Below are positions 1 to 42,263 of a stretch of 42,263 nucleotides of DNA, in pieces. Made by a program: the position numbers and the translations under genes. The notes beneath the pieces were generated by a model. The model saw nothing but the letters and a program-made list of their open reading frames with translations, was not told the DNA's origin and made no database searches. The DNA is from a virus: the IMG/VR virus record IMGVR_UViG_3300021256_000029, positions 1 to 42,263 of that record; one strand, written 5' to 3'. How positions within the stretch are numbered: the first letter of the stretch is position 1; every line of letters starts with the position of its first letter.

Positions 1-127
1 ACGCAATTTGGACAACGTGCGGGTATTGTTCAAAATCCGTGTCCCAATTCCACGAACGTTCCGGAATCCCGGTCGTTTCCGTGTCAAAAAATAATACATC
101 GTCAATTGTCATATCGTATCGCAATTT
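1..127. repeat. Exact 127-bp direct repeat of the other contig end (42137..42263); circular-assembly overlap
   Basis: Bases 1-127 are identical to 42137-42263. Both copies carry the 5' end of the DnaQ-like exonuclease gene (minus-strand ATG at 108-110 and 42246-42248). Unique genome length is about 42,136 bp. Confidence 0.95.
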
Positions 128-131
128 AGTG

Positions 132-242
132 TTACTTGGAATCAATGATGGCGCGGGTTCCGTTGGGCCTGTTCCCGTACAACGTACATCCGGAACCGGC
201 AATCGTGAAATCCACGTAATCGTTTTCGTTAATCTTTCGCAT
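132..242 (-). CDS. Hypothetical 36-aa protein (below the ORF-track cutoff)
   Basis: ATG at 240-242, 11 nt after the stop of 254..658. TAA at 132-134, 21 nt before the exonuclease ATG. Translates to MRKINENDYVDFTIAGSGCTLYGNRPNGTRAIIDSK. It fills a gap in a tightly packed operon. Confidence 0.3.
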   Translation of the reverse strand: MRKINENDYVDFTIAGSGCTLYGNRPNGTRAIIDSK

Positions 243-253
243 TTGGTTTTGTG

Positions 254-658
254 TTAAATGGTCCTTGGGTCCTCAATATACACGGAAAGGTTTTCGGCGG
301 CAAACTGTTTCAACCATTCCAAGAAATCGGAAAAGTCGGGTTTGGATATTTGCCGGGCTTCCAACAATCCGCCATAATCGTTATAACACGACCCGCATTG
401 TTGGCGCAACCACAAATCAACCTGTTTTTCGGTTTTGCGTTCGCCGGTTTCCAAAAGGGCCGTTTGGATGGTCGGGACAATGTAATTGAAATAATATGCC
501 AATTGCAATTCACTTGAACCCGGCGCGGCCGCTTCAAAACGGATAACCACGCGTTCGCCTTTGTGTTCCGCGCACCAAGCGTTTACACGGTCCATCGGAA
601 TACGCAACCGGCCATCGGTCCCAATCAATCCGGATTCGCTTATTTTTTGCGTTTTCAT
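254..658 (-). CDS. Hypothetical protein (weak NinB/Orf-like resemblance)
   Basis: 134 aa with an ATG start, 2 nt downstream of the preceding gene's stop. The C-terminal ...FSDFLEWLKQFAAENLSVYIEDP resembles the end of NinB/Orf recombination mediators only at motif level. Confidence 0.5.
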   Translation of the reverse strand: MKTQKISESGLIGTDGRLRIPMDRVNAWCAEHKGERVVIRFEAAAPGSSELQLAYYFNYIVPTIQTALLETGERKTEKQVDLWLRQQCGSCYNDYGGLLEARQISKPDFSDFLEWLKQFAAENLSVYIEDPRTI

Positions 659-660
659 CG

Positions 661-1077
661 TTAATTGGCGTTTGATTTCTTGGGGAACAATTCGGGTTCC
701 AATTCCGGGTATTCTTCAACCACGTATTGGGCCACGGTCAAATTGTACGCCTGTTGGCCGATTTGACGAATGTATTTGCGTTCGGCCGGATTCCGGGTTG
801 AACCACCGGCCACGACCTTTGCATATTCCACGGCCAAATCCTCAACGGACAAATCAACCAATTTGTCAATGACGTGGGCCGGTAATTTGTAACCCTTGGG
901 ACCGCCCAATTTGTGCATCGCTTGGTATGATGCAATGGCCGTTTTCCGGGTTTCCTTTTGTTCGGTCCAATACGCGGCCAAGTTTTCCAAGAATCGCGGC
1001 AACGCCACGACGTCGAAAATGGTTTTACCCTGTAACGCCTTGCAAGAACGAATCTTTTGTAATGTTTCCTTTTTCAT
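661..1077 (-). CDS. Hypothetical protein (138 aa)
   Basis: The track ORF 661..1116 starts at a non-ATG codon. The first ATG (1075-1077, MKKETLQKI...) lies just downstream of a hairpin at 1094-1127. Confidence 0.55.
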   Translation of the reverse strand: MKKETLQKIRSCKALQGKTIFDVVALPRFLENLAAYWTEQKETRKTAIASYQAMHKLGGPKGYKLPAHVIDKLVDLSVEDLAVEYAKVVAGGSTRNPAERKYIRQIGQQAYNLTVAQYVVEEYPELEPELFPKKSNAN

Positions 1078-1187
1078 TGTCTTTTGTATCAATAACCCGG
1101 GATTGTCCCAACCCACAACCCCGGGTTGATGTTGGTATTGTTAGAACCTTATCGAAACGACCGTATCAATATTTATTCGTGTTTATG

Positions 1188-2597
1188 TTAACGTTCCGTG
1201 TATTCTTCAACCAACATTTCGGTTTGGCCGCGTTGGACCTGTTCGATAAATCCTTGGAATCCGTTGCGTTTGGCAATGTCAATGATGGTTTCCAACCTCT
1301 TTGCACCAAGCGATTCGCCACGGGCAATTCGGAACACCTTAACGGTCGGGTTGGATGCGATAACAAGTTTGGCGGCGATTTCCATAATTTGGGAATCGGA
1401 AACTTTTCCCGGGACGAACGGAACGCCATTCAGTTCCAACCCGTCGTCCGTGAACGTCAAACCATCAATGGGTAATTTGGCCGTGGCAATCAGTTCGGCG
1501 CGTTCCTTGGCCAACGCATCAATGCGGGCGTCCATCTGTTCGGCCTTGGCCTTTACGTCGTCAAACTGTTGTTTCTTTTCTTTGTATTGCTCAACCAACG
1601 AATACTTTTTGTTATGGGCTTCCGCATTGGCCAACAGTTCCGGAACGTTGGTTTTTTCCGGGTTGTTCTGTTCATACTTGGCCAACCATTGTTCGGCGTT
1701 CGCCTTGCGGGTTTCCAAATCGGCCTTTTCGGCTTCAATGGCCGCAATATTTTCTTTCAACACGGAATCAATCTTGGTTATCGCGCCCGCCTGTTCGGCC
1801 ACGGCCTGTTCGTATGCGGCTTTCGCGGCCGCAACCTTATCGGCGTAAACCTTGCGGGTTTCGTCCGCCTTGGTCTTTTCCGCTTCAATGCGTCCGGGAA
1901 TGGCCGCAATCTGTTCGGTACGTTGCGCCAACATCGTGCGGACCGTCTTGGCCTTTTCAATCAACTTTGCGTTGGTTGACTGTTGTTCCATCAATCCGGT
2001 AACGTCAATGGGCGTGGCGTATTTCTCAATGTCGCCCGGTTCCATCCGGCCGGTAATTTGTGCAATCAGCGTGTCGAACGTCTTGACGTCACGGTTTACG
2101 CCGGTGCGTTCGGTTTTCAGTCCGGAAACCTCAACGTCAATTGCTTCGATACGTTCACGGACGGCCGGGGCCAACAGGGATTTAACAACGGCAATTTGCT
2201 TGCGGCGGCCATCGGCGGTTTCGGACCAACGGGAAAATTCCACGGCGTCGAAATCTTGGTATCCGAATATGCGTTGCAACATCGAAACGTTGTTGGTCGC
2301 CATACCGGTTGATTTCTGTTTGATGGTCAAAGTTCCACGGGGGTTGTTTTCCGTGAATGACAAAGAAACGTCAAATTCTTCGCCGTCGTCCCCGACAACC
2401 ATTTTGGCAAAGCCCTTGGACGCGCCGTTACGTAACACGTCGTCACGTTCGCCGGTCAATAATGCGCCAATGGCCTTTAACAACGTGGATTTACCCAATT
2501 CGTTGTCGCCCGTAACAAAATAGACATTGCCGGTAAATTCGGCGGAAAACTGTTCGATTACTTGAAAATTCAGTAATTCCAACTTTTTAATGTACAT
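1188..2597 (-). CDS. Rad50/SbcC-like SMC-family ATPase (469 aa)
   Basis: Walker A GDNELGKST at aa 30-38, then about 300 aa of coiled-coil-like KAE-rich sequence. The C-terminus has signature/Walker-B-like VSDSQ...VKVFRIARGESL. The ATG is embedded in the conserved GCGATACGATG motif. Confidence 0.7.
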   Translation of the reverse strand: MYIKKLELLNFQVIEQFSAEFTGNVYFVTGDNELGKSTLLKAIGALLTGERDDVLRNGASKGFAKMVVGDDGEEFDVSLSFTENNPRGTLTIKQKSTGMATNNVSMLQRIFGYQDFDAVEFSRWSETADGRRKQIAVVKSLLAPAVRERIEAIDVEVSGLKTERTGVNRDVKTFDTLIAQITGRMEPGDIEKYATPIDVTGLMEQQSTNAKLIEKAKTVRTMLAQRTEQIAAIPGRIEAEKTKADETRKVYADKVAAAKAAYEQAVAEQAGAITKIDSVLKENIAAIEAEKADLETRKANAEQWLAKYEQNNPEKTNVPELLANAEAHNKKYSLVEQYKEKKQQFDDVKAKAEQMDARIDALAKERAELIATAKLPIDGLTFTDDGLELNGVPFVPGKVSDSQIMEIAAKLVIASNPTVKVFRIARGESLGAKRLETIIDIAKRNGFQGFIEQVQRGQTEMLVEEYTER

Positions 2598-2644
2598 CGT
2601 ATCGCAATTTTTATTGGTCCGGCCGGAACCGGACCCGGGTTTAA

Positions 2645-3097
2645 CTATAACTTAAAATTGGCCATATCAAAGTAACCAACAATGGCCGATTTGCCGCAAT
2701 TCCACGCGTCCAAAATGACGCCATCCACACACGCGGTTTCGTGTCCCGCAACAGTAACAACGAATCGTCCGGCCGGGTGCGTTTCCGCAAATTCCAACAC
2801 GGTCATTCGCTTTTTACCCTTGACCGCCGGGCAATGGGTCCATTTCGCGCCGCCCTCAATCAACCATTTGCGGAATCCGGGGCCATCTTCCGGTAAGGAA
2901 TAATCGGCCCGTGCCTTTGCGGTCAAGAAATCAAACGATTCCAACCACGTACACGAAATTGCGTTGGCCAATGCGCGTACCGTGCAATCGGCAACATCCC
3001 ATTTGAAACCACGTTTTAACGCCCAACGCGGGTTCGGGTTTTCAATCCGGAAATGTGGACCGGATTTGTAACAACGTTCGAATGTTTGTGCATCCAT
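2645..3097 (-). CDS. Hypothetical protein, possible papain-like cysteine peptidase (150 aa)
   Basis: The track ORF 2645..3193 runs through tRNA-Leu. The first ATG clear of the tRNA is 3095-3097 (MDAQTFERCY...). Candidate Cys (VADCTVRALANA) and His (AGHETACVDG) motifs are present. Confidence 0.4.
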   Translation of the reverse strand: MDAQTFERCYKSGPHFRIENPNPRWALKRGFKWDVADCTVRALANAISCTWLESFDFLTAKARADYSLPEDGPGFRKWLIEGGAKWTHCPAVKGKKRMTVLEFAETHPAGRFVVTVAGHETACVDGVILDAWNCGKSAIVGYFDMANFKL

Positions 3098-3139
3098 AAA
3101 ACAATGTGTTAAGTTCCCGGGAAAACGCCCGGTCGTCTG

Positions 3140-3220
3140 TACCCCCGGCCGGAATCGAACCGGCACGCCATACGGCAATTGATTTTGAGCCAATCGCGGC
3201 TACCATTACGCCACGGGGGT
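3140..3220 (-). tRNA. tRNA-Leu: tRNA-Leu, anticodon CAA (reads TTG), type II with long variable arm
   Basis: The minus strand reads ACCCCCG-TG-GCGTAATGGTAGCCGCG-ATTGG-CTCAAAA-TCAAT-TGCCGTATGGCGT-GCCGG-TTCGATT-CCGGC-CGGGGGT-A. It has a 7-bp acceptor stem, a GG D-loop, a TTCGATT T-loop, a 13-nt variable arm and anticodon loop CU-CAA-AA. Confidence 0.85.
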
Positions 3221-3229
3221 ATGTCTTTG

Positions 3230-3300
3230 TTGCGCCGCCCCGATTCGAACGGGGAATACAAGTGCCAAAAACTTGGGTGTTACCATTACACCACGGCGCA
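3230..3300 (-). tRNA. tRNA-Gln: tRNA-Gln, anticodon TTG (reads CAA)
   Basis: The minus strand reads TGCGCCG-TG-GTGT-AATGGTA-ACAC-C-CAAGT-TTTTGGC-ACTTG-TATT-CCCCG-TTCGAAT-CGGGG-CGGCGCA-A (71 nt). The cloverleaf is canonical, with the U1:A72 pair typical of bacterial tRNA-Gln. Confidence 0.85.
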
Positions 3301-3306
3301 ATTCCA

Positions 3307-3495
3307 TTATCTTGAAATGGCGGACGCCGGAACACAAATCATTGTCCAAACTTTTCCGTCCTTTACATAATCAATTTCGTATTCATCTTTGAACGTGCAA
3401 AAGTTCACGTCGCAACGAACAATCGTGCCATTGATTTTGTTTCCGTCTTTCATCGTAACAACGACGTTTTCGCCTTTCGTAAATTCCTGTTTCAT
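3307..3495 (-). CDS. Hypothetical protein (62 aa), first gene of early operon 1
   Basis: ATG at 3493-3495 directly after early cassette 1. The stop lies 6 nt before tRNA-Gln. Confidence 0.6.
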   Translation of the reverse strand: MKQEFTKGENVVVTMKDGNKINGTIVRCDVNFCTFKDEYEIDYVKDGKVWTMICVPASAISR

Positions 3496-3586
3496 TGTCT
3501 TAACTCTTTAACCGGGAACCGGCCCGGGCCGTCGGAACAATCATCGTTCCGGGTACAAATGTAAGGATATTTTTTTAATTACCAAA
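3496..3586 (-). promoter_or_regulatory. Early promoter-leader cassette 1 (Bacteroidota sigma-A type promoter plus two-hairpin leader)
   Basis: Read on the minus strand:
- -33 TTTG at 3583-3586, a 19-nt spacer, then -7 TACATTTG at 3556-3563.
- Hairpin 1 GGAAC-GATGATT-GTTCC at 3534-3550.
- Hairpin 2 CCGGG-CCGGTT-CCCGG at 3512-3527, inside a 21-nt block identical in cassettes 1, 3 and 4.
- An A-rich leader, then ATG at 3495. Confidence 0.75.
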
Positions 3587-3605
3587 AGAAATACACAAAT
3601 TTTTA

Positions 3606-3806
3606 TCAAAAAAGTTTGGACCGGTCCACAATCCCGGGATTCCAACAGACGGAACCGGCGGCCAACGCCTGTTCAAACGCGGCGTCCGTGGCGGCGTGGC
3701 GGCCCAATTCGAACCAATGTTTGTATTTGGCCCGCTTAACCATTATACGGCAAATGCCGTTCGGGTCCCGGACAATGTGGGCGTCAACCTTTGTTTCCAT
3801 CGTCAT
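3606..3806 (-). CDS. Hypothetical protein (66 aa)
   Basis: The track ORF 3606..3875 overlaps the upstream gene. The ATG at 3804-3806 (MTMETKVDAH...) lies 10 nt after the upstream stop at 3817. Confidence 0.55.
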   Translation of the reverse strand: MTMETKVDAHIVRDPNGICRIMVKRAKYKHWFELGRHAATDAAFEQALAAGSVCWNPGIVDRSKLF

Positions 3807-3816
3807 TGTTCTTTGT

Positions 3817-4104
3817 TTAATCGCCGCCGGTTTCCTTATCCATCCGGCGCAACAACCGGCGTTGTTTCCGGTCATACTCTTTCATACAGGCATCCAACCC
3901 GTAAATAATCATCAATTGGCGAATCATCAAATGAACATCCGCGATTTCGGTAATAACCTTTTCCGGGGTTGTCCGGCCATCCTGTTCCCGTTCCAATTCG
4001 GTTATCAATTCGCCCATTTCTTCAATGGCCTTTCGCTTTTGGTGTTCCGCGCCGTAATGATGGACGGCCAACAACGGAACGGTCAACGGCTTTAACTCTT
4101 TCAT
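3817..4104 (-). CDS. MazG-like nucleotide pyrophosphohydrolase (95 aa)
   Basis: Small all-helical protein with EEMGELITELERE ... EIADVHLMIRQL, which matches the EExxE...ExxD metal-binding pattern of the MazG family. ATGA overlap with the upstream gene. Confidence 0.6.
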   Translation of the reverse strand: MKELKPLTVPLLAVHHYGAEHQKRKAIEEMGELITELEREQDGRTTPEKVITEIADVHLMIRQLMIIYGLDACMKEYDRKQRRLLRRMDKETGGD

Positions 4105-4280
4105 TGCTTCAATGCCAAATCCGGGTTATAATGATACCTTTTGCACGTTTCGTTTGGTCCACGTTTTGCGAAATTACGGGATGCGTGGCAATACGATTCG
4201 GGTTCAAAATTCCCGGTCTTTTCGTTGTACAATTGACCGGCAACGCGCCAATGGCGGCAATTCTTACATATCGGTTCCAT
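4101..4280 (-). CDS. Hypothetical Cys-rich (zinc-ribbon-like) protein, 59 aa (below track cutoff)
   Basis: Translated by hand: MEPICKNCRHWRVAGQLYNEKTGNFEPESYCHASRNFAKRGPNETCKRYHYNPDLALKQ. The ATG (4278-4280) follows the upstream TGA by 1 nt, and the stop overlaps the MazG ATG (ATGA). Confidence 0.6.
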   Translation of the reverse strand: MEPICKNCRHWRVAGQLYNEKTGNFEPESYCHASRNFAKRGPNETCKRYHYNPDLALKQ

Positions 4281-4281
4281 A

Positions 4282-4497
4282 TCAAAACAACCTTGGTGTT
4301 GGGTCCAACAAATGGGCGTTCAATGCGTCCAATTCCTTTTCCATCTGTTGCGCAATGTGCAACGCGTCAATATTACGCAACCGGAACCATCGGTTTTGAT
4401 TGTGGCGCAACGTGGCCACGAACCGGACATATTCGGCCGCCTGTTCCGGCGTTATTTTTTGCAAATTTTCGATTTGCGGGCATTTTAATTCTTCCAC
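4282..4497 (-). CDS. Hypothetical protein (71 aa, GTG start)
   Basis: The only in-frame start near the 5' end is GTG at 4495-4497. It lies 10 nt after the upstream stop. Confidence 0.5.
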   Translation of the reverse strand: MEELKCPQIENLQKITPEQAAEYVRFVATLRHNQNRWFRLRNIDALHIAQQMEKELDALNAHLLDPTPRLF

Positions 4498-4507
4498 GGG
4501 TAATTTA

Positions 4508-4792
4508 TCATTTTTTGTTTTTAATTCGTTTTACGGGCTTTTTTGTGGCCTTTCCGGGCGGGCGTCCTCTTTTACGCTTGGGTTGTGCGATTTCCGGGGC
4601 TTTCCGTGCGATTTTGGCCGATTTCTGTTCGATTTCGGCCGGTTTTTGTTCGATTGGATGGTTGCACCAAAAGAACGTCCCGGTTCCGGTCCTGTAAAAC
4701 CATTGGCATTTGCGGCAAATTGGCGAATCAATTTCGCATCCTTTGCCGAACGGGCAACCGCCGCCCATCAGCGTAAAAACCTTTGTTGGCAT
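4508..4792 (-). CDS. Cys-rich protein with AT-hook-like basic tail (94 aa)
   Basis: Two CxxC-type pairs (CPFGKGC...CRKC...C) are followed by a PAEI/SAEI/APEI repeat. The tail KRKRGRPPGKATKK has a GRP AT-hook core. Confidence 0.55.
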   Translation of the reverse strand: MPTKVFTLMGGGCPFGKGCEIDSPICRKCQWFYRTGTGTFFWCNHPIEQKPAEIEQKSAKIARKAPEIAQPKRKRGRPPGKATKKPVKRIKNKK

Positions 4793-4793
4793 A

Positions 4794-4967
4794 TCATTTC
4801 AAAATTGCGTTCAACTGTTCAATCGTCGTTACCTTTTCCGGCCATTCGTGCCAACCCACAATCAACGTCCCGTCCGGCTTCCATCCAATGCGCGGGTTAC
4901 TGAATCGAACCATTATCCCGGAACGTTCAACCCATCCTTGGGCCAACAGGTATTCACGCGTTATCAT
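4794..4967 (-). CDS. Hypothetical protein (57 aa)
   Basis: The track ORF 4794..5024 has a non-ATG start inside the HNH gene. The ATG at 4965-4967 (MITREYLL...) forms an ATGA overlap with the HNH stop. Confidence 0.5.
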   Translation of the reverse strand: MITREYLLAQGWVERSGIMVRFSNPRIGWKPDGTLIVGWHEWPEKVTTIEQLNAILK

Positions 4968-5443
4968 TCGCCAAGAAAAGTAAAGTGAAAACCTTTGTGT
5001 GCGGGCAATTCGCCACGGCAACATTTGGCAATGTGGGATGTGTCCAAATTCATTTTACGGGCCGCATCGGCGCAAGAATCAAACGTTTTCCCGGTTTCAA
5101 AGCAATATACGGGTTTTCCACGTTTTGCCGAACGTCGTTCAATACAAGAACCAAAATTGATGTTGTATTTTGCCGTACACCATTCCAAATTTTCGGCCCG
5201 GTTGTCCGTCTTGATTTCGTTTTTATGGTTGATTTGTGGCAACCCGTCCGGATTCGGAACAAATGCCAATGCAACCAACCGATGTATTTTGTAACGCTTG
5301 CGTTCAATACAAACTTGGTAATAACCCGTTTTTGTCTTTTCCGGCCTGTAAACACGAAACCCGTGTTTCAAAGTTGCGACACGGCCTTGGTCACTAACTT
5401 GGTAATAACCGGGCAAACCGGGTATTTCTTTCCACGTTTCCAT
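4964..5443 (-). CDS. HNH homing endonuclease (NUMOD4 + HNH + C-terminal HTH), 159 aa
   Basis: METWKEIPGLPGYYQVSDQGRV matches the NUMOD4 pattern. INHKNEIKTDNRAENLEW is an HNH_3 motif. FDSCADAARKMNLDTSHIAKCCRG looks like an IENR1/NUMOD1 HTH. The ATG at 5441-5443 follows the RuvC-like stop by 1 nt. Confidence 0.85.
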   Translation of the reverse strand: METWKEIPGLPGYYQVSDQGRVATLKHGFRVYRPEKTKTGYYQVCIERKRYKIHRLVALAFVPNPDGLPQINHKNEIKTDNRAENLEWCTAKYNINFGSCIERRSAKRGKPVYCFETGKTFDSCADAARKMNLDTSHIAKCCRGELPAHKGFHFTFLGE

Positions 5444-5444
5444 A

Positions 5445-6005
5445 TTAGAACAATTTTGCATATTCCCGGGCGGGCAAATTGCTTTTAACCCAATTGGGTT
5501 CATTGACCAACGCCCAACGTCCAAAGTGCATTATTAAAAGCGCATCAGCGTTCCACAATGTTACCTTAACGCCCGGGTAAAGTTTTGCGGCGTGTTCTTG
5601 GTAACGCTTTTTTCGGTCGGCCTTTTCTTCGTGGACGCCGCGAACGCGCAATTTCAACTTGGTTTGCCAACTTGCGGGATGGACCATTACATACGGAATC
5701 CCGGCGGTTTCGGCCAACGCTTTCAAGTGTTCAAAATTGGCCATCAACTTTTGAATCCTGTACATCTTTCCCATTGCGGCCCGTTCGCCCTGTACCATTA
5801 CGTCGTCCGGGCGGACCGACAATTTTTCCAAAAACACAATGGGTTTGTAATTCTCAACGTAATACGCAAAGAAATCCCGCAATTCGGTAATGTCCTTTGG
5901 CATTTTGGCAACCTTGGGATTTTGGCCGGGAATGAATATGGCAATGCCGCCATTGGCCCCGGGGTCAATCCCTATTACGCAATTTATTTTAATCTTTGCA
6001 TCCAT
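5445..6005 (-). CDS. RuvC-like Holliday junction resolvase (186 aa)
   Basis: Catalytic acidic motifs lie in the RuvC order: IGIDPGANGG, FLEK and NADALLI. Confidence 0.75.
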   Translation of the reverse strand: MDAKIKINCVIGIDPGANGGIAIFIPGQNPKVAKMPKDITELRDFFAYYVENYKPIVFLEKLSVRPDDVMVQGERAAMGKMYRIQKLMANFEHLKALAETAGIPYVMVHPASWQTKLKLRVRGVHEEKADRKKRYQEHAAKLYPGVKVTLWNADALLIMHFGRWALVNEPNWVKSNLPAREYAKLF

Positions 6006-14612: not shown

Positions 14613-14653
14613 TGTTAGTAGTAGTGACTATTCATTGGGTATTAAACCAATTG

Positions 14654-16534: not shown

Positions 16535-18820
16535 TTACAAACCGAAATAGTATTTAACACAATCGTCTGTTCCGCCAACGTAAAGTTGTCCGGCGTTCCG
16601 CTTGGCAATACAATATTCAATAATCGCCGCAATCTTGTTCAAACTGAATACCGACGTATCGCCGTCCACCAAGTCCGCCGCGTGACCGTAAAACGTCATA
16701 ATTTGGTCGTTGGTTATGGAATCGTCAATGTATTCTTCGATTTCCGCCAATGTGTGGGATTGCATCGAATAACGGTGCAAATCGCACGGGTCTTGGTTTC
16801 GTCCGTTTGCCGTCGGGCTTGACGTTCCCGATGTGAACGCGTATGCGTGGAACAACTTTAATATCGGCATAAATTCGGCGGCCATTGACGACGACGGCGC
16901 GACAAATCCATTACATACCATTCCCGCGCCCTGTATGCGGTACAATGCGGTTTGTATTGCGGCCATTGCGGTTTGATATGTATAATTTGTTGTGTCGTAA
17001 ATTGTCCCGTTAATACTGTGGTTCATAATTTGGAACCCTTTTCGTTGATAACCAACATAACGCGGGCCGTGTTCCAAAATATTGCTTTCGCTTGCAATAA
17101 AAGCAAATGCGCACGTTAGTTTATAAGTTTCAAATAACGCAACAATTTGCGAATCCTTTGCGGGAATATCGTCAAATTGGAAAGACACACACGGCAATTT
17201 CGTTTTTGGATATAACTTGATTGGCGAATATGCCGGTTTGCCATATTCGTTAATATCCTTTATTTGGTCCGTTAAACTTATAAGACCTAAATAAGAATAA
17301 TTTTGCAAGTTGGCGTATCTATTTTCAATTCCGCCGGCGCAAGACAAACGCATATAATACGCGCCATCCGGAACAGTAAAGACCGCAACGCCCGAACTCT
17401 CGTTTTGGTAATATTGATTATGATACACTTTGTCTGCATCATAAAAACAAATTGCCGCATTTGAATTTTGTCGCGTGTTTGTTAAAAATTGTTGGCCCGG
17501 CGCACACGGGAAAAATCCGGTTGCGGTATATGTGGCGTGTCCTGTTAGTTGTCCGCTTGATTTATCAATGAAGCCGGAAAGGGAAAAATCAGAATCGACA
17601 ATATTATAAAAACCGGGTTCCCCGAGTTTAATTATGTCGGGGAAATTAACCGTATTCGGGTCCGTGGAAATTACCTTATTGTTAATTAAAATCCCGTCCC
17701 CGGCCGTATATTCATCCGCCGCATCCATATAACAGGGACCGGCAAAAACATATTCCGGATTTGTGTTTAATGCGTTAAACACATAACCATATATTCCGGC
17801 AATTCCCAATACTGACGAATCAATTAACGCGACAACACGTTTTCCGGAAACCGTCACATCCAAAGAAAATTCGAATGTTCTTTGGTCCAATTGTACATTG
17901 TAATAAAAAACTTGCACCCAATCGTTTGAACCACGTTGTTCGGAAATTCTAAGGTTAAAAACAGTTGCCGAAACCCAAAAAACGTAAACGGTATGTTTTT
18001 TTGTTGCATCGAATCCGTACAATTTAACGGTTTTGAAAATGTTATAAAGTTCGCGCCGTGTACCCTCAACGTACCCGCCAAAATCAATTACGTTATCAAT
18101 ATTTGCGTCACTCTCGTTCGCATATTTTTCCCATACGTCGCTTGTTTGCAATTCCGGAATATCTTGCAACGATTTATATTCGGTTATAAGTTTAGCAAAC
18201 CGGCCCTCCAAACTGTTTGTTGTGCTTATAATCATATAAAACGCACCGGATGGAACCGTTATTGTTTGCATTATGTCAATATTTATTCCGGAAATAAATG
18301 TTTTATTTTCGTTATAAAAACAAATTCCAACGTCCAATACGGCCCGAAGATATGAAAAAAATTGTTCCCCGGGAAAAACCGGGATATAATCGGAACGGGA
18401 AAAATTTACATTTTCAACAACTTGACCACTTGATTTGCTAACATACGAACCGGATATTGTTGCATAATATTTCGCCGTTTTGATGTTTGATATATCGGCG
18501 TCTTGTTTTAATGTTAGCGATTCAACGTTAATTGACCACGCGCCATTATATGAAAAAACGCCAATTTGCCCGTATCCAACCGTCGCTGAATTAAAATTTG
18601 GATATTGTCCCGGCTTAATTGCAATATAGAATACATTTTGGTCGGGCGTTCCCGGATTTGTGCTTGGCGTTGCAACACCGGCGAATTGGAAACCGGCGAC
18701 GCCCAAAGAATCAACCATTGCCAACAACTGTTGTTGTAACAAATTGCCGGTAATTTCATTGTTCCCGTTTTGCTTTATTGCGGCGGCAATGGCCGCTTTC
18801 AATGTTGCGTAATTTGCCAT
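16535..18820 (-). CDS. Tail fibre / receptor-binding protein with duplicated beta-sandwich-like domain and C-terminal polysaccharide-deacetylase (NodB/CE4)-like domain
   Basis: The ATG lies at 18818-18820 (MANYATLKAAI...); the track start at 18829 is TTG. Two paralogous ~88-aa segments lie at 18188-18445 and 17306-17572. The C-terminal part (16538-17197) has SFQFDD, MNHS, FVAPSS and TFYGHA in NodB-motif order. Confidence 0.6.
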   Translation of the reverse strand: MANYATLKAAIAAAIKQNGNNEITGNLLQQQLLAMVDSLGVAGFQFAGVATPSTNPGTPDQNVFYIAIKPGQYPNFNSATVGYGQIGVFSYNGAWSINVESLTLKQDADISNIKTAKYYATISGSYVSKSSGQVVENVNFSRSDYIPVFPGEQFFSYLRAVLDVGICFYNENKTFISGINIDIMQTITVPSGAFYMIISTTNSLEGRFAKLITEYKSLQDIPELQTSDVWEKYANESDANIDNVIDFGGYVEGTRRELYNIFKTVKLYGFDATKKHTVYVFWVSATVFNLRISEQRGSNDWVQVFYYNVQLDQRTFEFSLDVTVSGKRVVALIDSSVLGIAGIYGYVFNALNTNPEYVFAGPCYMDAADEYTAGDGILINNKVISTDPNTVNFPDIIKLGEPGFYNIVDSDFSLSGFIDKSSGQLTGHATYTATGFFPCAPGQQFLTNTRQNSNAAICFYDADKVYHNQYYQNESSGVAVFTVPDGAYYMRLSCAGGIENRYANLQNYSYLGLISLTDQIKDINEYGKPAYSPIKLYPKTKLPCVSFQFDDIPAKDSQIVALFETYKLTCAFAFIASESNILEHGPRYVGYQRKGFQIMNHSINGTIYDTTNYTYQTAMAAIQTALYRIQGAGMVCNGFVAPSSSMAAEFMPILKLFHAYAFTSGTSSPTANGRNQDPCDLHRYSMQSHTLAEIEEYIDDSITNDQIMTFYGHAADLVDGDTSVFSLNKIAAIIEYCIAKRNAGQLYVGGTDDCVKYYFGL

Positions 18821-18829
18821 AATATTCAA

Positions 18830-37446: not shown

Positions 37447-37772
37447 TGCTTCAATCGTTCCTTTACTTGTTCCAACGTCCAACAATCCGGGTTTGCTTTA
37501 CAGAATTTCAAGAATCCATCCCGGCCCAATTTCCGGTAAATCGGCAAAACGTCGGTACGGACCAAATCGGCTGGTTCCCCGGGTTCAATCGCCTTTTCGC
37601 GTCCGGCCTTTTCCGCATCCCGGGAACATTCGAAAATGTCTTTGCCGTCTTTGTTACAAATGACATAATCGTATTTCCCCAAATGGATGCGGCCGGTATA
37701 TCGGGCAATGGACAAATGGGAATTGGCCCAAAAGGATTCCGACATTGCCAACGGTAATTGTTCGTGTTTCAT
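37431..37772 (-). CDS. Hypothetical protein (113 aa)
   Basis: ATG start with an ATGA overlap to the upstream gene. Confidence 0.55.
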   Translation of the reverse strand: MKHEQLPLAMSESFWANSHLSIARYTGRIHLGKYDYVICNKDGKDIFECSRDAEKAGREKAIEPGEPADLVRTDVLPIYRKLGRDGFLKFCKANPDCWTLEQVKERLKQWKQI

Positions 37773-38236
37773 TTCCGGGTTCCTTTTTCTTTTTTCATTT
37801 GTTCAATCAGCGCATCAACCCGGTTTTGAAATTCATTCAAACAGTCGTCGCACCAAACGTTTCCGGCGTCGTCCTCATTGCCATTTTCGTCAAGTTCAAC
37901 GGCCTTTCCGCAAATGCAACATTTTGTTTCCGGTTCGACCTTGGGAATAAACGCCGCATCCTTGCACGGTTCGGAATAAAAACGGATTCGGACCCACAAA
38001 CATTCCCGTTCCGGGTCGTCGTGTATTTCAATTAGTCGTTCCCCGGCGCGGCCCTCTATTGCATCCCACAACGCCATAATAAATTGCGGGTCGTTGTGGT
38101 TCTTGTATGATGGTTCGATAAAGTAATGGTCGCCGCCGTTCTTGGGTTCACATTCAACCCCGGTCAACGATTCGACCATATTACACAATTGCGCGTCAAA
38201 CGCGTTCAACTTGGTTTTCCAATATTCTTGTTCCAT
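37769..38236 (-). CDS. Hypothetical protein with C-terminal zinc-ribbon-like CCxC...CxxC (155 aa)
   Basis: ATG at 38234-38236 (MEQEYWKTKL...), 1 nt after the upstream stop. Confidence 0.5.
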   Translation of the reverse strand: MEQEYWKTKLNAFDAQLCNMVESLTGVECEPKNGGDHYFIEPSYKNHNDPQFIMALWDAIEGRAGERLIEIHDDPERECLWVRIRFYSEPCKDAAFIPKVEPETKCCICGKAVELDENGNEDDAGNVWCDDCLNEFQNRVDALIEQMKKEKGTRK

Positions 38237-38237
38237 A

Positions 38238-38423
38238 TTATTCCACGGTTTCGCCAATTGATTCAAACAACGCTTTCATATCGTCGTCGTCCCCGGAAAC
38301 GGAAACGCGGGCGGTATCTTGACCGGCCACGGCAATATTCAAGACGGCGCAATTAAAGTCATTGGCCGTATTTTGGATTTTAACCGCCTTTTCAATAGGC
38401 AACAAAACGGTTTTGTGTATCAT
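38238..38423 (-). CDS. Hypothetical acidic protein (61 aa)
   Basis: ATG at 38421-38423 (MIHKTVLL...) forms an ATGA overlap with the ASCH gene stop. Confidence 0.5.
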   Translation of the reverse strand: MIHKTVLLPIEKAVKIQNTANDFNCAVLNIAVAGQDTARVSVSGDDDDMKALFESIGETVE

Positions 38424-38929
38424 TTCAAATTGATTTTCTTTTGTACCATATCCCACCCATCGGGACCCAATGCCACGTTGCGCGGGTATTCTGTAATATC
38501 GTCTTTCGGGACAATGATGTTATACAACCCCAATTGGCCCTTAATAGGCATTTCCACAACCCGGCGCGGGTTCCGCATCAACCATCCGTAACCCTTGCGC
38601 GGGCGGTCTTTTTCCGGGATGCAAGTTGCGGCCCAATCGTCGGCCGTGAATTGTTCGACGGGCTTTGTGTCATACAATTCGACAAACCCACACGTAACGC
38701 CCGCCATCCGGCCGGGCAAATTGTTCGGTTTCGCCGATGAACATATTAACAAGTCGCCGCGATACGATATGTTCCGGGTTCGTACCTCAATCGTTTTTTC
38801 CGCGTGGTATTCCCCGGATTCATCCCGGAACACAACACGCGTCAACAAATCCGCATACGGTTGTTTTACCGTTAACGCCTTGAACACGTCGTGTTGGTCC
38901 GGGTTGTAATCCTTTTTGTCTATTTGCAT
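38420..38929 (-). CDS. ASCH (PUA-like) domain protein (169 aa)
   Basis: ALTVKQPYADLL...KTIEVRTRNISYRGDLLIC matches the ASCH domain N-terminal pattern. Confidence 0.6.
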   Translation of the reverse strand: MQIDKKDYNPDQHDVFKALTVKQPYADLLTRVVFRDESGEYHAEKTIEVRTRNISYRGDLLICSSAKPNNLPGRMAGVTCGFVELYDTKPVEQFTADDWAATCIPEKDRPRKGYGWLMRNPRRVVEMPIKGQLGLYNIIVPKDDITEYPRNVALGPDGWDMVQKKINLK

Positions 38930-38940
38930 AACCGTTCAAT

Positions 38941-39351
38941 TTATACCGGCATATCGTCGTTGGTGTTATATCCGCCGCCGGGCGTGTAATCCGGGGCCGG
39001 GGCCGGGGCCTGTTCGGGCTTTTTGCCGCCCAACAATTCCATTTCGTCCACAATGATTTCCGTAATGTAACGGGTTTGTCCGGCGTTGTCTTGGTATGAA
39101 CGGGTGCGGACCTTTCCCACAATCAAAAGCGGGGTTCCCTTTTTGACGTACTGTTGGCATACGCCCGCCAATCCGGATTGTTTGACAACGATATTGTGCC
39201 AATCGGTCACATCGGGAATTTCTTTGCCGTCCCGGGTCGTAAACCCGCGTTCGGTCGTTGCCAATGTAAATTGCGCAACCTTTCCGCCATTTTGGAAATC
39301 GGTAATGGTCGGGTCTTGGCCAACGTTACCTTTCAAAAAACACTTGTTCAT
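38941..39351 (-). CDS. ssb: Single-stranded DNA-binding protein (136 aa)
   Basis: OB-fold SSB pattern (NKCFLKGNVGQDP...FTLATTE...TDWHNIVV...YVKKGTPLLIVGKVRTRSY). This is followed by a P/G-rich linker and the acidic tip NDDMPV. Confidence 0.85.
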   Translation of the reverse strand: MNKCFLKGNVGQDPTITDFQNGGKVAQFTLATTERGFTTRDGKEIPDVTDWHNIVVKQSGLAGVCQQYVKKGTPLLIVGKVRTRSYQDNAGQTRYITEIIVDEMELLGGKKPEQAPAPAPDYTPGGGYNTNDDMPV

Positions 39352-39395
39352 ATTGTAAAGTTTTTGTCAAAATTTCATTAAATTTTACCATTCTT

Positions 39396-39713
39396 TCAAT
39401 CGTCGAATCGTGCGCCCTGTAACAAATACCGGCGTTTGTAATCAGTCCATCCGGCGGCATTGTTCAAATTTTCCCGGTCGCCCTCTCTTACAAACTCAAC
39501 CCATACCCCGGAAATCCCTTGGTCAACAATCCGAACCAACCGGCCAACAAAGTATTTCCGGAACCGGTAATATTCGCATTGTTCGTTTATGGCCAACACC
39601 CGTTTTGTGTTCTTTGGATGCGGCGTTTTCGGTGCGCGGCCGTTCCGCTTGAAATTGGCTTTGGCAAAATCCTTGCGGATTGACCGGCGCACCAATTCGT
39701 TGTAATCTTTCAT
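39396..39713 (-). CDS. Hypothetical basic protein (105 aa)
   Basis: ATG start with an ATGA overlap to the upstream gene. Confidence 0.55.
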   Translation of the reverse strand: MKDYNELVRRSIRKDFAKANFKRNGRAPKTPHPKNTKRVLAINEQCEYYRFRKYFVGRLVRIVDQGISGVWVEFVREGDRENLNNAAGWTDYKRRYLLQGARFDD

Positions 39714-39961
39714 TCCGGGTCGTATGGTTCGGGTTTATCCACGGAAACCAACACGGGTTGCAATGGTTGTCCAAACGTCAACAAAGATACGAAAATAACG
39801 CCGGTTTCCTGTACGCGTTTCAGTTCATCCGGGGATAACGCCCAACAGGTGTTTATTTGGCCCGTTTGGGGCTTTCCCACGCGTTCGGCGGGCAACGGTT
39901 GGTATTCCGGTTGTTCCGCCCCAAAAACGACGTTTACGCCGTCAAATTTAATCGGTTCCAT
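39710..39961 (-). CDS. Hypothetical protein (83 aa)
   Basis: ATG start with a 14-nt overlap to the upstream gene. Confidence 0.5.
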   Translation of the reverse strand: MEPIKFDGVNVVFGAEQPEYQPLPAERVGKPQTGQINTCWALSPDELKRVQETGVIFVSLLTFGQPLQPVLVSVDKPEPYDPE

Positions 39962-40139
39962 ACTGAATTGTTATTGTTATTGGTTTCTTTGCTTTCAACG
40001 CAGGTGCAATCAACGGCCAAATCATTTCTTCCAATTCCGCGCCCACGTCGTTTGCATTGCGGCAAATCTTGATTACGCGGCCATTGTCGAACGCAAACGT
40101 TCCATCCGGTTCCGGGTAAATTTCCGCCTTACTTTGCAT
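39948..40139 (-). CDS. Hypothetical protein (63 aa)
   Basis: ATG start with an 11-nt overlap to the upstream gene. Confidence 0.5.
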   Translation of the reverse strand: MQSKAEIYPEPDGTFAFDNGRVIKICRNANDVGAELEEMIWPLIAPALKAKKPITITIQYGTD

Positions 40140-40557
40140 TTTTGTATTCGCGTTTTAACTGTTCGATGGTCAACAGGTTTTGCCGGTATATCCGCATATT
40201 TTCGCGGTCGCCATTTTCCCAACGGTTGTGCATTTCGAAACAAAGGATGTTGACGTTTCGCGGGTCGTGTGCCATTTCCGGGTGTGCCCCGCGTGTCATT
40301 ATGTGCGAAATGTACGTGGCCGAATATTGGCGCAAAGGCCGCATCGTTTCCGAACATATATGCGGGTAATGGTCCCAACAAAACCGGTAAAATCGTTCGT
40401 TTTCGGCCGGGGTATGGCCTGTTCCGAACAATTCCCGTTGTATTGATACCCGCAAATTGATTTCAACCGCAAACCGGCGGTCAATCAACGGTTCGTATCC
40501 ACGTTGGCGGGCGTAATCGTACAATTCCCGGGTATCAATTACAATCGGTTCCATCAT
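40129..40557 (-). CDS. HNH/His-Me-finger-like nuclease (NinG/Rap-like?), 142 aa
   Basis: CSETMRPL...YISHIMTRGAHPEMAHDPRNVNILCFEMHNRWENG resembles a Cys...H...N...C..H finger. TAATG overlap with the upstream gene. Confidence 0.4.
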   Translation of the reverse strand: MMEPIVIDTRELYDYARQRGYEPLIDRRFAVEINLRVSIQRELFGTGHTPAENERFYRFCWDHYPHICSETMRPLRQYSATYISHIMTRGAHPEMAHDPRNVNILCFEMHNRWENGDRENMRIYRQNLLTIEQLKREYKNAK

Positions 40558-41186
40558 TACATTTCGGGCATATCGTCGCCGGTTCCGTCATTGGCGGCCG
40601 TTCCGGATTCCCCGGCCGGGGCCTGTTCGCCGTTGTCGCCGAACAATGATAATTGGGCCTGTTTCCCGTTGAACAAAAATTGGTAAACCTCTGTTTTGAT
40701 TGCTTCCACAATCTTTTCCAATTCTTCTTCAAACCCGAACGAAATTGTGGCCATCTTAATACGCGGGGTATTGATGCACGTTTTTAGGCCGTTGGGGGTT
40801 TCGAACACGGCGGTAATGACAACGCCGGTGTTGTCGTCGGTTCCGGACCAAGACACGCCGCGAACATCAATTTTTGCAATCAGTTCATCGGCAAATGCAC
40901 GGGCCAACATCTTTTTGGATTCGGGCAATTTCATTTCGTCGGAATCCAAGAACGTCAAAAATGACGTAATGTTGAACACGCGGCCCACAATCGGGCGCAA
41001 ATCCTCAAACAGTCCGCGCAAATCCGGGTGGATGTCACGGGAAACGTTTGCGTGGTAATCAGTCACGGACGGTTCGCCGCCCACGGTTTCCGTCACTTGG
41101 TAATCGGCTTGCAACCCGCCGTTGGGGTTCAACTTGACCTTGGAAAGATTGTAATTTTTTTCGGTCGGAATGGTCTTTTGTTCCAT
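40557..41186 (-). CDS. Hypothetical protein with consensus beta-clamp-binding motif QLSLF and SSB-like acidic C-terminus (209 aa)
   Basis: QLSLF lies at aa 178-182 (40641-40655, CAA TTA TCA TTG TTC). The C-terminal tail reads ...GESGTAANDGTGDDMPEM. The ATG is preceded by AATACGATG. Confidence 0.6.
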   Translation of the reverse strand: MEQKTIPTEKNYNLSKVKLNPNGGLQADYQVTETVGGEPSVTDYHANVSRDIHPDLRGLFEDLRPIVGRVFNITSFLTFLDSDEMKLPESKKMLARAFADELIAKIDVRGVSWSGTDDNTGVVITAVFETPNGLKTCINTPRIKMATISFGFEEELEKIVEAIKTEVYQFLFNGKQAQLSLFGDNGEQAPAGESGTAANDGTGDDMPEM

Positions 41187-41191
41187 CGTAT

Positions 41192-41404
41192 TTATTTTTG
41201 TTCGGTTTCCGGTTCCGCCGGAACGGGGTTTAATACGCCAACGGCGATTTCAACCAATTTGTGTAAATCCTCAACAATTGCAAGTTCGGCCGGGTTGGCC
41301 TTGGCCTTGCGTTGATGCGCCAACCAATTCTTGGTGTATTCAAGATAAAAACTTGGCGTGTTGTGGAACGAAATGGTTTGTTCCTGTTTTTGTTCTTTGC
41401 TCAT
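41192..41404 (-). CDS. Hypothetical protein (70 aa)
   Basis: ATG at 41402-41404 (MSKEQKQEQ...), 1 nt after the exonuclease stop. The longer track start is non-ATG. Confidence 0.5.
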   Translation of the reverse strand: MSKEQKQEQTISFHNTPSFYLEYTKNWLAHQRKAKANPAELAIVEDLHKLVEIAVGVLNPVPAEPETEQK

Positions 41405-41405
41405 A

Positions 41406-42248
41406 TTAAAATTCGTTTGCATCCAACAGTTCGGCGGCAAAGCCCGTTATTTTTGCCGAATTTTCGATTTCCGGGGCTTTCGCCGCTTGGACGGGTAATT
41501 TATCATTTTCGGTTTTTGCGTCCAAATTTGAGCCGTTTCCGGGCTTTCCCGGGGATGCGCCAAATTTTTGAGCCGCATCGGCCGCGATTTGGGCGGCGGT
41601 TGTGCTTTCCGGCGCGGGCTTGGCCTGTTCATCCGGGTATTCTTTCACTTTCAGTTCAACCAATCCCAATTCCAAGATAATCGGCAAACACTTGGCAACG
41701 GCCTTTACATCTTCCAACGCATCGTGCGCGGGGAATGTTTCGCCGGGGAAACAACGGGAATACAGTTCGGAAAGATTCGGGAATTTCAACCGGCCGTTGG
41801 CCATCCGGGCGTCAACCCATTTCATCGTCGGGCGCATCGTGTCAATTCGCTTTCCTTTGTACAAAGCGTTTTCCACGTCGTTGGCGTCGTAATATTCCCG
41901 GCCAAGTTCCCGCAAGATATTTGCTTTGATTATGGACGTGTCGAAATGGATGTTGTGGCCGCAAATCAATCCGGCGTCGTGACAATCCTGTATGAACATA
42001 TCCACAACAGACGCGAACGGTTCCCCGTGTTCCAATGCGTATTCCGTGGTTATACCGTGGACGTCAACGGTTTCTTGCGGGATTTCCCACCCATCCGGGC
42101 GGATTATGTGCGTTTCAACCTTGCACCCGTGTAACCACGCAATTTGGACAACGTGCGGGTATTGTTCAAAATCCGTGTCCCAATTCCACGAACGTTCCGG
42201 AATCCCGGTCGTTTCCGTGTCAAAAAATAATACATCGTCAATTGTCAT
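41406..42248 (-). CDS. DnaQ-like DEDDh 3'-5' exonuclease with ~90-aa low-complexity C-terminal extension (280 aa)
   Basis: Exo I FFDTETTG, Exo II GHNIHFD and Exo III HDALEDV. The ATG at 42246-42248 is preceded by GCGATACGAT. Confidence 0.8.
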   Translation of the reverse strand: MTIDDVLFFDTETTGIPERSWNWDTDFEQYPHVVQIAWLHGCKVETHIIRPDGWEIPQETVDVHGITTEYALEHGEPFASVVDMFIQDCHDAGLICGHNIHFDTSIIKANILRELGREYYDANDVENALYKGKRIDTMRPTMKWVDARMANGRLKFPNLSELYSRCFPGETFPAHDALEDVKAVAKCLPIILELGLVELKVKEYPDEQAKPAPESTTAAQIAADAAQKFGASPGKPGNGSNLDAKTENDKLPVQAAKAPEIENSAKITGFAAELLDANEF

Positions 42249-42263
42249 ATCGTATCGCAATTT
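42137..42263. repeat. Second copy of the 127-bp terminal overlap
   Basis: Identical to 1-127. Confidence 0.95.

Follow-up and report, generated by a model that had tools for sequence, protein, structure and literature searches.

The virus record IMGVR_UViG_3300021256_000029, analysed over its whole length of 42,263 nucleotides (hereafter the window), is a phage genome from which the dinucleotide AG and its complement CT have been largely removed: the symmetrised odds ratio rho*(AG/CT) is 0.28. The depletion is a fixation bias, that is, selection, and neither mutational decay nor the footprint of a hypermutable dinucleotide. It characterizes a viral lineage and accompanies the avoidance of paired G-flanked adenines, one on each strand, at a distance of 7-10 bp. 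Our interpretation, to which we give a probability of about one half, is that the deficit is an adaptive trait of the clade containing PDS1, BKO1-3, AS73P1 and TCUEAP2 ('Paboviridae'-like), maintained because it would allow these phages to escape bipartite, Type I/IIB-like restriction targets. A preliminary description, made from the letters of the window alone, had reported the depletion and proposed either broad anti-restriction selection or an unusual mutational history. The depletion is confirmed and is stronger than first stated; the anti-restriction reading is partly supported and can be sharpened to a bipartite target, while mutational and host explanations are excluded.

AG occurs 449 times and CT 1027 times on the plus strand, 0.20 and 0.33 of expectation. 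The deficit is uniform along the genome, every 1-kb segment having a rho of 0.17-0.43. It affects the three codon phases (0.19/0.45/0.30 for AG and 0.29/0.17/0.17 for CT) and also the 3.6 kb of non-coding DNA, where AG stands at 0.22 and CT at 0.33 (0.23 for CT and 0.33 for AG when read on the sense strand). Hand counts of AG/CT in three segments, given earlier as 6/11, 9/13 and 14/13, were right within one (6/11, 9/13 and 15/13). With proteins fixed and synonymous codons used uniformly, 2404 AG and 1729 CT are expected on the sense strand, where 887 and 371 are observed; a position shuffle preserving the codon usage of the phage still yields 1361±17 AG and 955±17 CT. The theoretical minimum for this proteome is 515 AG plus CT against 1258 observed, so that about 79% of avoidable sites have been removed. 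All 515 are AGs forced by Lys, Glu or Gln preceding a G-initial codon, and once these are set aside 372 avoidable AG remain against 371 CT.

The observed/expected ratios (O/E) of individual trinucleotides are 0.07 for TAG/CTA, 0.08 for GAG/CTC, 0.21 for CAG/CTG and 0.74 for AAG/CTT. That most survivors are AAG/CTT is true as a count; however, it reflects Lys codons and the forced junctions just described, not a tolerated context. At free positions C|TT is found in 5.6% of cases versus a baseline of 47%, an 8-fold avoidance as strong as in other contexts, and NNA|G in 0.9-2.4% regardless of the next base versus 25%. Where a Glu or Gln codon precedes a G and AG is unavoidable, GAG and CAG are back at their baseline of 39-45%, which identifies the dinucleotide itself as the avoided unit; on both grounds we rejected an exemption of AAG/CTT. 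The Lys codon AAG alone is held back (22-43%), presumably for reasons of translation.

A maximum-entropy model penalising AG/CT only predicts a CG ratio of 1.49 (observed 1.57) and a GA/TC ratio of 0.87 (observed 0.81). The CG excess is thus an arithmetic by-product of AG/CT removal, and was rejected as an independent signal. The earlier view that the deficit is not a GC or CpG effect is upheld; TCGA, listed there as abundant, is under-represented (99 occurrences). The same model predicts 1.12 for AA/TT against 1.59 observed, an excess that AG/CT loss leaves unexplained. Across the clade, sense CT is the most uniformly depleted (0.19-0.25), sense AG ranges from 0.33 to 0.62, and sense TC is lower than sense GA. 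The window reverses the asymmetry between AG and CT, with a per-site selection strength S of 3.5 for AG and 3.1 for CT. In the isolates and TCUEAP2 (L001, L002, L003 and L022), sense CTG is nearly absent from free codon-boundary sites (0.6% in the isolates, 0/84 in TCUEAP2), unlike sense CAG (7-19%). This strand-specific avoidance of CTG is not seen in the subclade of the window, where CTC is rarest.

Substitution patterns separate selection from mutation. Seven independent pairs of closely related genomes, 90-97% identical in nucleotide sequence, were examined at four-fold sites whose context is conserved, and the rates are expressed relative to control contexts. For A before G, creation proceeds at 0.28 times the control rate (confidence interval 0.22-0.34) and destruction at 2.64 times; for C before T, the figures are 0.20 (0.14-0.25) and 3.22. 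Changes that create AG/CT are thus fixed 3.6-5 times less often than controls and those that destroy it about three times more often. A fixation-bias model with a single parameter predicts creation and destruction at 0.26 and 2.5 for A before G, and at 0.18 and 3.0 for C before T. All six mutational paths, transitions and transversions, are biased away from AG/CT, so that what matters is the state reached and not the type of change leading to it. The strength of selection per site is modest (S about 2-3) compared with the complete removal of GATC and CATG described below. Decay of a hypermutable dinucleotide, for instance through CpT methylation followed by deamination to TpT, could account for the AA/TT excess and for the combination of low CT, high CG and high TT already known from other viruses (PMC4219779). 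Yet hypermutability predicts no change in creation, which is strongly suppressed, and would have produced 359 and 235 differences instead of the 99 and 46 counted. Transversions are biased as much as transitions, the shifts from AGR to CGN and from NCT to NCG, NCC or NCA require changes other than C-to-T, and the CG excess needs no mutational cause. We regard decay as highly improbable: the unusual mutational history suggested at first is contradicted, and broad anti-restriction selection, the other suggestion, fits better with a fixation bias acting through all mutational paths.

Codon usage has been reshaped accordingly. In the window 71% of Leu codons are TTG and 82% of Gln codons are CAA, while AGR accounts for 6% of Arg and GCT for 2% of Ala; in non-depleted relatives CTN reaches 42-55% of Leu and AGR 46-64% of Arg. 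When the next base is not G, CAG represents 9% of Gln codons in the window versus 34-50% in non-depleted relatives, and CTN 17% of Leu codons versus 42-55%. The window carries two tRNA genes:
3139..3220, minus strand: tRNA-Leu (anticodon CAA), reading TTG, the CT-free Leu codon.
3229..3300, minus strand: tRNA-Gln (anticodon UUG), reading CAA, the AG-free Gln codon.
The fit of these two tRNAs to the forced codons, pointed out in the preliminary description, extends to relatives. Both are present in L004, L006, L009 and L011; AS73P1 has Gln-UUG, L004 and L006 add Lys-UUU, and L011 adds Arg-ACG. Each of the four species reads an AG/CT-free synonym, and their anticodons match codons enriched relative to non-depleted phages, as expected of compensatory tRNAs. 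In the non-depleted relatives ARAGORN detected no standard tRNA, its only call being one of undetermined type in P2559Y. The third tRNA accompanying Gln-UUG and Leu-CAA in close relatives (L004 963-1271 and L006 1070-1314 for Lys-UUU, L011 44-418 for Arg-ACG) was either lost by the window or never present there.

The deficit follows the viral lineage and not the host. The nearest isolates of the window are Bacteroides phage BKO1-3, Alistipes phage AS73P1, Parabacteroides phages PDS1 and PD491P1 and Bacteroides phage C1_85S2P, with Elizabethkingia phage TCUEAP2 as a more distant relative. The depleted clade consists of siphoviruses infecting Bacteroides, Parabacteroides, Alistipes and Elizabethkingia. 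Rho* is 0.40-0.49 in the four isolates measured, and spans 0.27-0.57 when uncultured relatives and the clade as a whole are considered. Structurally related phages outside the clade have values of 0.92 (B40-8), 0.95 (BF695P3), 1.07 (BF503P2) and 0.77 (P2559Y). Phage PD482P1 (L025, OP172814), which infects the same host species as PDS1, stands at 0.92; together with it, the phages of Parabacteroides distasonis and Bacteroides fragilis from outside the clade lie at 0.92-0.95. Among 68 bacterial loci, mostly Bacteroidales chromosome contigs, the median is 0.92 and host chromosomes lie at 0.85-1.05; the sample covers Bacteroides, Phocaeicola, Parabacteroides, Prevotella and Dysgonomonas, including metagenome-assembled genomes (MAGs) from the rumen. 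Mimicry of host dinucleotide and codon usage might have been suspected, given that the GC content of PDS1 is that of its host (PMC10773633). It is refuted for all sampled host genera by these chromosomes and same-host phages, and can be virtually dismissed; the comparison with hosts, put forward earlier as a way to refute a phage-specific depletion, leaves it standing.

The only depleted loci in the bacterial set are phage-sized contigs of the same clade mis-binned into MAGs. These contigs (L028, L030, L033-L037, L080 and L082) were binned as Enterousia, Alphaproteobacteria, Eubacteriales, Acutalibacteraceae, Bacteroidaceae or Dysgonomonas, and several come from sheep colon or rectum. Their odd composition probably misleads binning, and the MAG labels should not be taken as hosts.

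As genetic causes, radical-SAM, glycosylase and methyltransferase genes were rejected, since their distribution in the clade is patchy and the window lacks them. The replication module was rejected as well, since PD482P1 has the same module without depletion. PD482P1 has structural and replication genes in common with the depleted clade, and a host species in common with PDS1; it avoids no restriction site (GATC 275 observed for 198 expected, CTAG 120 for 130) and no gapped pair, and its specific proteins include no DNA-modification gene in Pfam. It must escape restriction by other means. We found no complete gene that every depleted genome carries and every non-depleted relative lacks; the sole sequence element with this distribution is an N-terminal domain of 65 amino acids, for which no functional lead was found:
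37769-38266, minus strand: gene whose first ~65 residues are homologous to proteins of the depleted isolates.
Its homologues form the N-termini of otherwise dissimilar proteins (the MazG-like gp39 of PDS1, AS73P1_00042, gp47 of BKO1-3 and TCUEAP2 39569-40153).

The second signal is the avoidance of gapped pairs. The avoided configuration is AG or GA followed by CT or TC with a distance of 7-10 from A to T, and corresponds to G-flanked adenines on opposite strands. GA(N6-9)TC, AG(N5-8)TC, AG(N4-7)CT, AG(N5-7)GT and GA(N6-7)TG are avoided in the five complete clade genomes out of five, and in none of PD482P1, B40-8 and BF503P2. In the window we counted 4 GA(N8)TC, 8 GA(N9)TC and 14 GA(N6)TC for 216 expected in each case, GA(N7)TC being mildly low. 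AG(N4-6)CT occurs only twice in the whole window:
128..136, plus strand, intergenic: AGTGTTACT, first surviving AG(N4-6)CT pair.
14620..14629, plus strand, intergenic: AGTAGTGACT, second surviving pair.
In the isolates and TCUEAP2, GA(N6-N9)TC are all low, and GGNCC and GANTC are about zero in the isolates. A G-flanked A followed by a C-flanked T has an O/E of 0.02-0.18 at distances 7-10 and about 1 at other distances, and AG followed by any T at 7-10 has an O/E of 0.34-0.65. Adenines without a G neighbour show no effect. The avoidance is directional, A lying upstream of T, with TC(N)kGA flat, and an assumption-free scan of offsets finds an effect at +7..+10 (AG...T) and at -7..-10 (A...CT) only. 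A model based on proximity of nicks by a frequent nickase was rejected, since the dependence on distance is non-monotonic (AG(N1-3)CT mildly low, AG(N4-6)CT about zero).

The most telling test asks how far the loss of AG depends on a partner. It takes the four-fold sites that precede a G and gives the share of them occupied by A, split by content 7-10 nt downstream, the baseline being the share before non-G:
TCUEAP2: baseline 0.426; no T 0.382; other T 0.067; C-flanked T 0.013.
Isolates BKO1-3, AS73P1 and PDS1: baseline 0.307; no T 0.124; other T 0.037; C-flanked T 0.011.
Subclade of the window: baseline 0.239; no T 0.024; other T 0.015; C-flanked T 0.008.
Sense-strand AG avoidance is entirely conditional on a partner T in TCUEAP2, and almost unconditional in the subclade of the window. 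Across 43 genomes and loci, dinucleotide depletion and pair avoidance co-vary (Spearman 0.77, p=1e-9), with no pair avoidance in any non-depleted phage or host chromosome of this set. Target density is 2-5/kb in the clade (4.8/kb in the window) versus 28-47/kb in non-depleted phages and host chromosomes, and the coding DNA of the window contains 165 targets versus 785±26 in codon shuffles. Host chromosome loci have a pair O/E of 0.87-1.00 and 44-47 targets/kb, meaning that the sites occur at normal frequency in hosts.

A separate lineage with a different replication module and near-normal AG/CT, Croceibacter phage P2559Y (L026, NC_023614), has 13 AG(N6)CT per strand for 83 expected, whatever the inner or outer flanks. 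This pattern hints at restriction by a system that specifies no more than four bases, and implies that four-base bipartite targets exist in Bacteroidota.

Classical restriction sites are avoided in a different manner. Under composition- and codon-aware nulls, GATC and CATG are absent from the window where 95.5±7.3 and 94.8±6.8 are expected; the expected counts range over about 95-118 and 95-176, respectively. AGCT, CTAG, GGTGA/TCACC and GTGAT/ATCAC are also at zero, as are at least 21 independent 6-bp palindromes, among which TTTAAA (0/49.5), CGCGCG (0/31), CCGCGG (0/30), ATTAAT, GAATTC, GCGCGC, GGCGCC and GGGCCC. CAATTG, CGGCCG, TTGCAA and CCCGGG are about two-fold enriched. An O/E below 0.1 is found for 54% of palindromic 6-mers versus 6% of non-palindromic ones. 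The AG/CT-containing sites listed in the preliminary description do belong to this set, all 16 six-bp palindromes with AG/CT being at zero and CTNAG occurring once; however, the loss of a dinucleotide in every context cannot be driven by such palindromes. Adding up all palindromic CT..AG sites is insufficient as a cause: no more than 16 of the 64 six-bp palindromes contain AG/CT, and free sites show uniform avoidance whatever the flanks. GATC avoidance is host-dependent (0 in gut and rumen members, 139 for 91 expected in TCUEAP2) and CATG is at zero in the subclade of the window only, whereas AG/CT and adenine-pair avoidance are clade-wide and do not depend on the host.

Published Type IIB sites offer a closer parallel. 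Those of exactly the avoided form include BplI GAGN5CTC, FalI AAGN5CTT, HaeIV GAYN5RTC, AloI GAACN6TCC, PpiI GAACN5CTC, BsaXI ACN5CTCC and Bsp24I GACN6TGG (PMC3883493). These sites are about zero in the clade, the HaeIV-type site being found 0 times for 41 expected in the window versus 34/41 in PD482P1, while Type IIB sites that do not belong to the class (BaeI, CspCI) occur there or are even enriched. For CspCI, the word CAAN5GTGG is over-represented 2-3 times across the depleted clade (14 for 4.9 expected in the window), and stands at or below expectation in non-depleted relatives; the enrichment of CAA/TTG may have brought this about as a side effect. A Type IIB half-site may comprise no more than 2 bp, and the majority of these enzymes require two sites (PMC1892151); in enzymes bridging two sites, cleavage depends on site density.

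The contig represents a complete phage genome, a circular molecule of ~42.1 kb (about 42,136 bp): positions 1-127 recur identically at 42137-42263, which indicates an assembly overlap of a circularly closed molecule. In the closed circle, the right-end exonuclease gene lies next to the genes of the left end. Portal, capsid, terminase, tape-measure and recombination genes are encoded, nearly all on the minus strand. Further features are:
4964-5524, minus strand: I-HmuI-like HNH homing endonuclease with NUMOD4, HNH_3 and NUMOD-like domains.
16535..18829, minus strand: tail-fibre-like gene, conserved in relatives at its N-terminus alone, with GC down to 0.39-0.43.
40129-40557: HNH nuclease, one of several clade nucleases.
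41406..42260, minus strand: DnaQ-like 3'-5' exonuclease gene, without a single GAG on its sense strand.
The absence of CTC from the plus strand of the exonuclease gene (41406-42248), noted at the outset, holds against an expectation of 16.7. The AG/CT O/E of the tail-fibre-like gene (0.26-0.39) lies inside the genome range. The segment 17101-17700, once read as a later acquisition, has an O/E of 0.39 (92nd-93rd percentile) where other segments reach 0.52, and we find no evidence of a recent fibre import from a non-depleted source. Among complete relatives only BKO1-3 has a match to the homing endonuclease (34% identity), which for this reason is probably a mobile insertion. The nucleases of the clade comprise two HNH proteins, a RuvC-like protein, a PHROG-298 exonuclease and the DnaQ-like exonuclease, and its recombination module an exonuclease, a Gp3-like protein, RuvC, an SMC/SbcC-like ATPase and a NinB-like protein. 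The annotation of BKO1-3 includes a Lar-like restriction-alleviation protein. Stop trinucleotides reach only 0.54-0.55 of their expected frequency on either strand (66 and 36 TAG) and the window has 119 open reading frames (ORFs) of at least 100 amino acids, many of them antisense shadows; these long shadow ORFs are explained by the scarcity of TAG, as had been correctly anticipated, and of stops overall.

How could an avoided pair lead to an avoided dinucleotide? What selection acts on may be the general layout of the targets of bipartite restriction systems that methylate adenine (Type I and Type IIB). The AG half-site would accept any T at +7 to +10, a condition met in about two thirds of random contexts, and a partner requirement this loose would leave the deletion of AG/CT itself as the only workable escape. 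GA requires a TC or CT partner, hence pair avoidance would be enough and GA/TC stays at 0.81. As the sense strand is A-rich and sense AG is partly forced (Lys, Glu or Gln before G-initial codons), sense CT would be purged hardest, in line with the strand asymmetry of most members. In the subclade of the window the avoidance would have generalised to nearly every AG/CT, perhaps through changing spacer or partner specificities among hosts, or through two-site enzymes making the cost density-dependent. The resulting shift to TTG, CAA, AAA and CGN codons would be offset by phage tRNAs reading exactly these codons. From the geometry of the target and its likeness to published Type IIB sites, we infer that an enzyme of this kind may be responsible.

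Several observations weigh against this restriction-escape reading. The target has so far been linked to no restriction enzyme and no methyltransferase motif, nor to any gene of the hosts. About 200 strict targets are left in the window, and so loose a cutter would still cut. In the subclade of the window, AG/CT is avoided about 10-fold when no partner is present, as is sense CT in TCUEAP2 (4.7-fold) when no A lies upstream; such partnerless avoidance means that pair avoidance alone is insufficient. The signal persists in hosts belonging to two orders, while the avoidance of GATC and CATG changes with the host, which is easier to understand for a phage-intrinsic property. PD482P1, with the same host species and most replication genes shared, is unaffected, and no anti-restriction or DNA-modification gene that would exempt it was found. 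Finally, per-site selection is weak, unlike the complete loss of GATC.

Three other explanations accept the fixation bias and place its origin elsewhere. Biased mismatch repair or gene conversion against AG/CT alleles, resembling very short patch (VSP) repair or GC-biased gene conversion, would not involve selection on the organism at all. The pattern of lowered creation and raised destruction is mathematically identical under such a bias and under selection, and the rich recombination module of the clade would provide the machinery. All six mismatch types would, however, have to be resolved toward AG/CT removal, and no known repair enzyme acts in this way. Dependence on a partner base 7-10 bp away is foreign to mismatch repair, PD482P1 carries the same module without the bias, and the phage tRNAs point to a long-standing, costly and compensated codon shift; we consider biased conversion improbable. 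Barely less so is a pressure on CU/AG at the level of RNA or single-stranded DNA (ssDNA), through an endoribonuclease, a toxin modifying RNA or ssDNA, or an effect on translation, all of which could leave a genomic trace as the genes lie on one strand. Dinucleotide-specific defences do exist: CmdT targets GA in mRNA and DarT targets TNTC-type ssDNA motifs. A strand-level pressure would agree with the uniformity of sense CT depletion relative to sense AG, with sense TC below GA, with the partnerless avoidance of sense CT in TCUEAP2, and with the near-absence of sense CTG at free sites beside appreciable sense CAG. On the other hand, the depleted dinucleotides are each other's reverse complements, avoidable AG and CT are equally numerous in the window, where the asymmetry is even reversed, a directional A...T pair one helical turn apart reflects duplex geometry, and PD482P1 is unaffected in the same host species.

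We find it unlikely, though less so than the two preceding explanations, that the phages avoid a low-specificity DNA-acting protein of their own, such as a nuclease or nickase directed at host DNA, or a dimeric DNA-binder involved in replication, recombination or packaging, with a G-flanked adenine as half-site. Without protective modification, a phage would minimise its own targets, and self and host would be told apart by target density; host chromosomes indeed hold 10-20 times more targets per kb than the phage. Viral enzymes with a specificity of two or three bases are known, as the chlorovirus Nt.CviQII (R^AG) and M.CviQII (AG), or T4 endonuclease IV (TC on ssDNA). Both signals track the clade across two host orders and several habitats while host-specific site avoidance varies, and the clade encodes several nucleases, listed above with the two HNH proteins. 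But apart from the 65-residue domain no gene is confined to depleted genomes, PD482P1 shares the nucleases and the replication module and shows no avoidance, P2559Y avoids AG(N6)CT with a different replication module, and ~200 targets are left in the window. Returning to restriction escape, we would tentatively, and with some doubt, go one step further: either the lineage evades a whole class of nucleases by deleting their minimal shared half-site, AG/CT, or an undescribed system, encoded by Bacteroidota or by phages, reads G-flanked adenine pairs one helical turn apart and separates self from non-self by target density. If true, this would parallel, in prokaryotes, the way in which ZAP or TLR9 senses CpG density.

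Literature searches returned no earlier description of such a depletion in phages, nor any phage report of a dinucleotide depletion kept by selection at the level of vertebrate CpG; the papers on PDS1 do not mention dinucleotides or restriction. Our observations suggest that defence evasion can reshape the composition of a whole genome, its codon usage and its tRNA complement, beyond the loss of a few sites. They provide a concrete target for experiments, G-flanked adenine pairs 7-10 bp apart, and point to undescribed bipartite restriction activities of low specificity in gut, rumen and environmental Bacteroidota. Practical consequences may be expected too: host prediction based on k-mers would mis-assign these phages, stop-poor shadow ORFs are a hazard for gene callers, and the bias is relevant to the design of therapeutic or engineered Bacteroides phages.

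Compared with known systems, the avoidance of palindromic Type IIP sites is clearly at work in this genome, with GATC, CATG, CTAG, AGCT and at least 21 6-bp palindromes at zero while other palindromes are normal or enriched. Both phenomena are driven by selection and achieved through synonymous choices. Classical avoidance, however, removes particular 4-6-mers completely and shifts with the host, whereas AG/CT loss is dinucleotide-level, context-free, weak per site and conserved across hosts. With Type I and Type IIB targets (BcgI, BplI, FalI, HaeIV), the avoided configuration shares an adenine half-site and a T 7-10 bp downstream in one direction; the difference is that a whole class is avoided here, down to 2+2 or 2+1 specified bases, and not one specificity of 5-7 bp. 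Strand-bias evasion of Type III, ISP and MANTIS systems provides a third comparison. In T7 all 36 EcoP15I sites have one orientation (PMC3874151), and a strand bias of MANTIS motifs has been described in phage genomes (bioRxiv 10.64898/2026.09.23.753747). The asymmetric motif, the co-oriented genome and the harder purging of sense CT in most members are reminiscent of such evasion. Here, though, both orientations are avoided at free sites (A|G 2.3-25x, C|T 6-12x), the asymmetry is reversed in the window, and the partner lies at 7-10 bp and not at any distance.

As in other cases of compensation by phage tRNAs, the tRNAs of the clade read over-used codons (TTG, CAA, AAA and CGN). The skew is forced here by a nucleotide-level constraint, not by GC content or expression, and all four tRNA species serve codon families with an AG/CT-containing alternative. 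In its magnitude the deficit is comparable to CpG depletion in vertebrates (rho about 0.2-0.25), another dinucleotide-level signature that reshapes codon usage; CpG loss is mutational, through deamination of 5-methylcytosine, while in the phages creation is suppressed and all paths are biased. The closest pattern is that of the large DNA viruses of invertebrates, with CpT(ApG) depletion, CpG excess and increased TpT, independent of translational selection (Upadhyay et al. 2014, PMC4219779). It was attributed to host CpT methylation and deamination, with a mean TpT O/E of 1.17 (PMC4219779). The same triad is found here (AG/CT 0.28, CG 1.57, AA/TT 1.59), in non-coding DNA alike. The TpT and CpG shifts are much smaller in these viruses of eukaryotes (TpT 1.17 versus 1.59), and since mutation is excluded for the phages and their CG excess is arithmetic, only the pattern is shared, cause and host group being different. 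A re-reading of the baculovirus-like signature may nevertheless be offered: there too, CpG excess would follow arithmetically from the loss of CpT.

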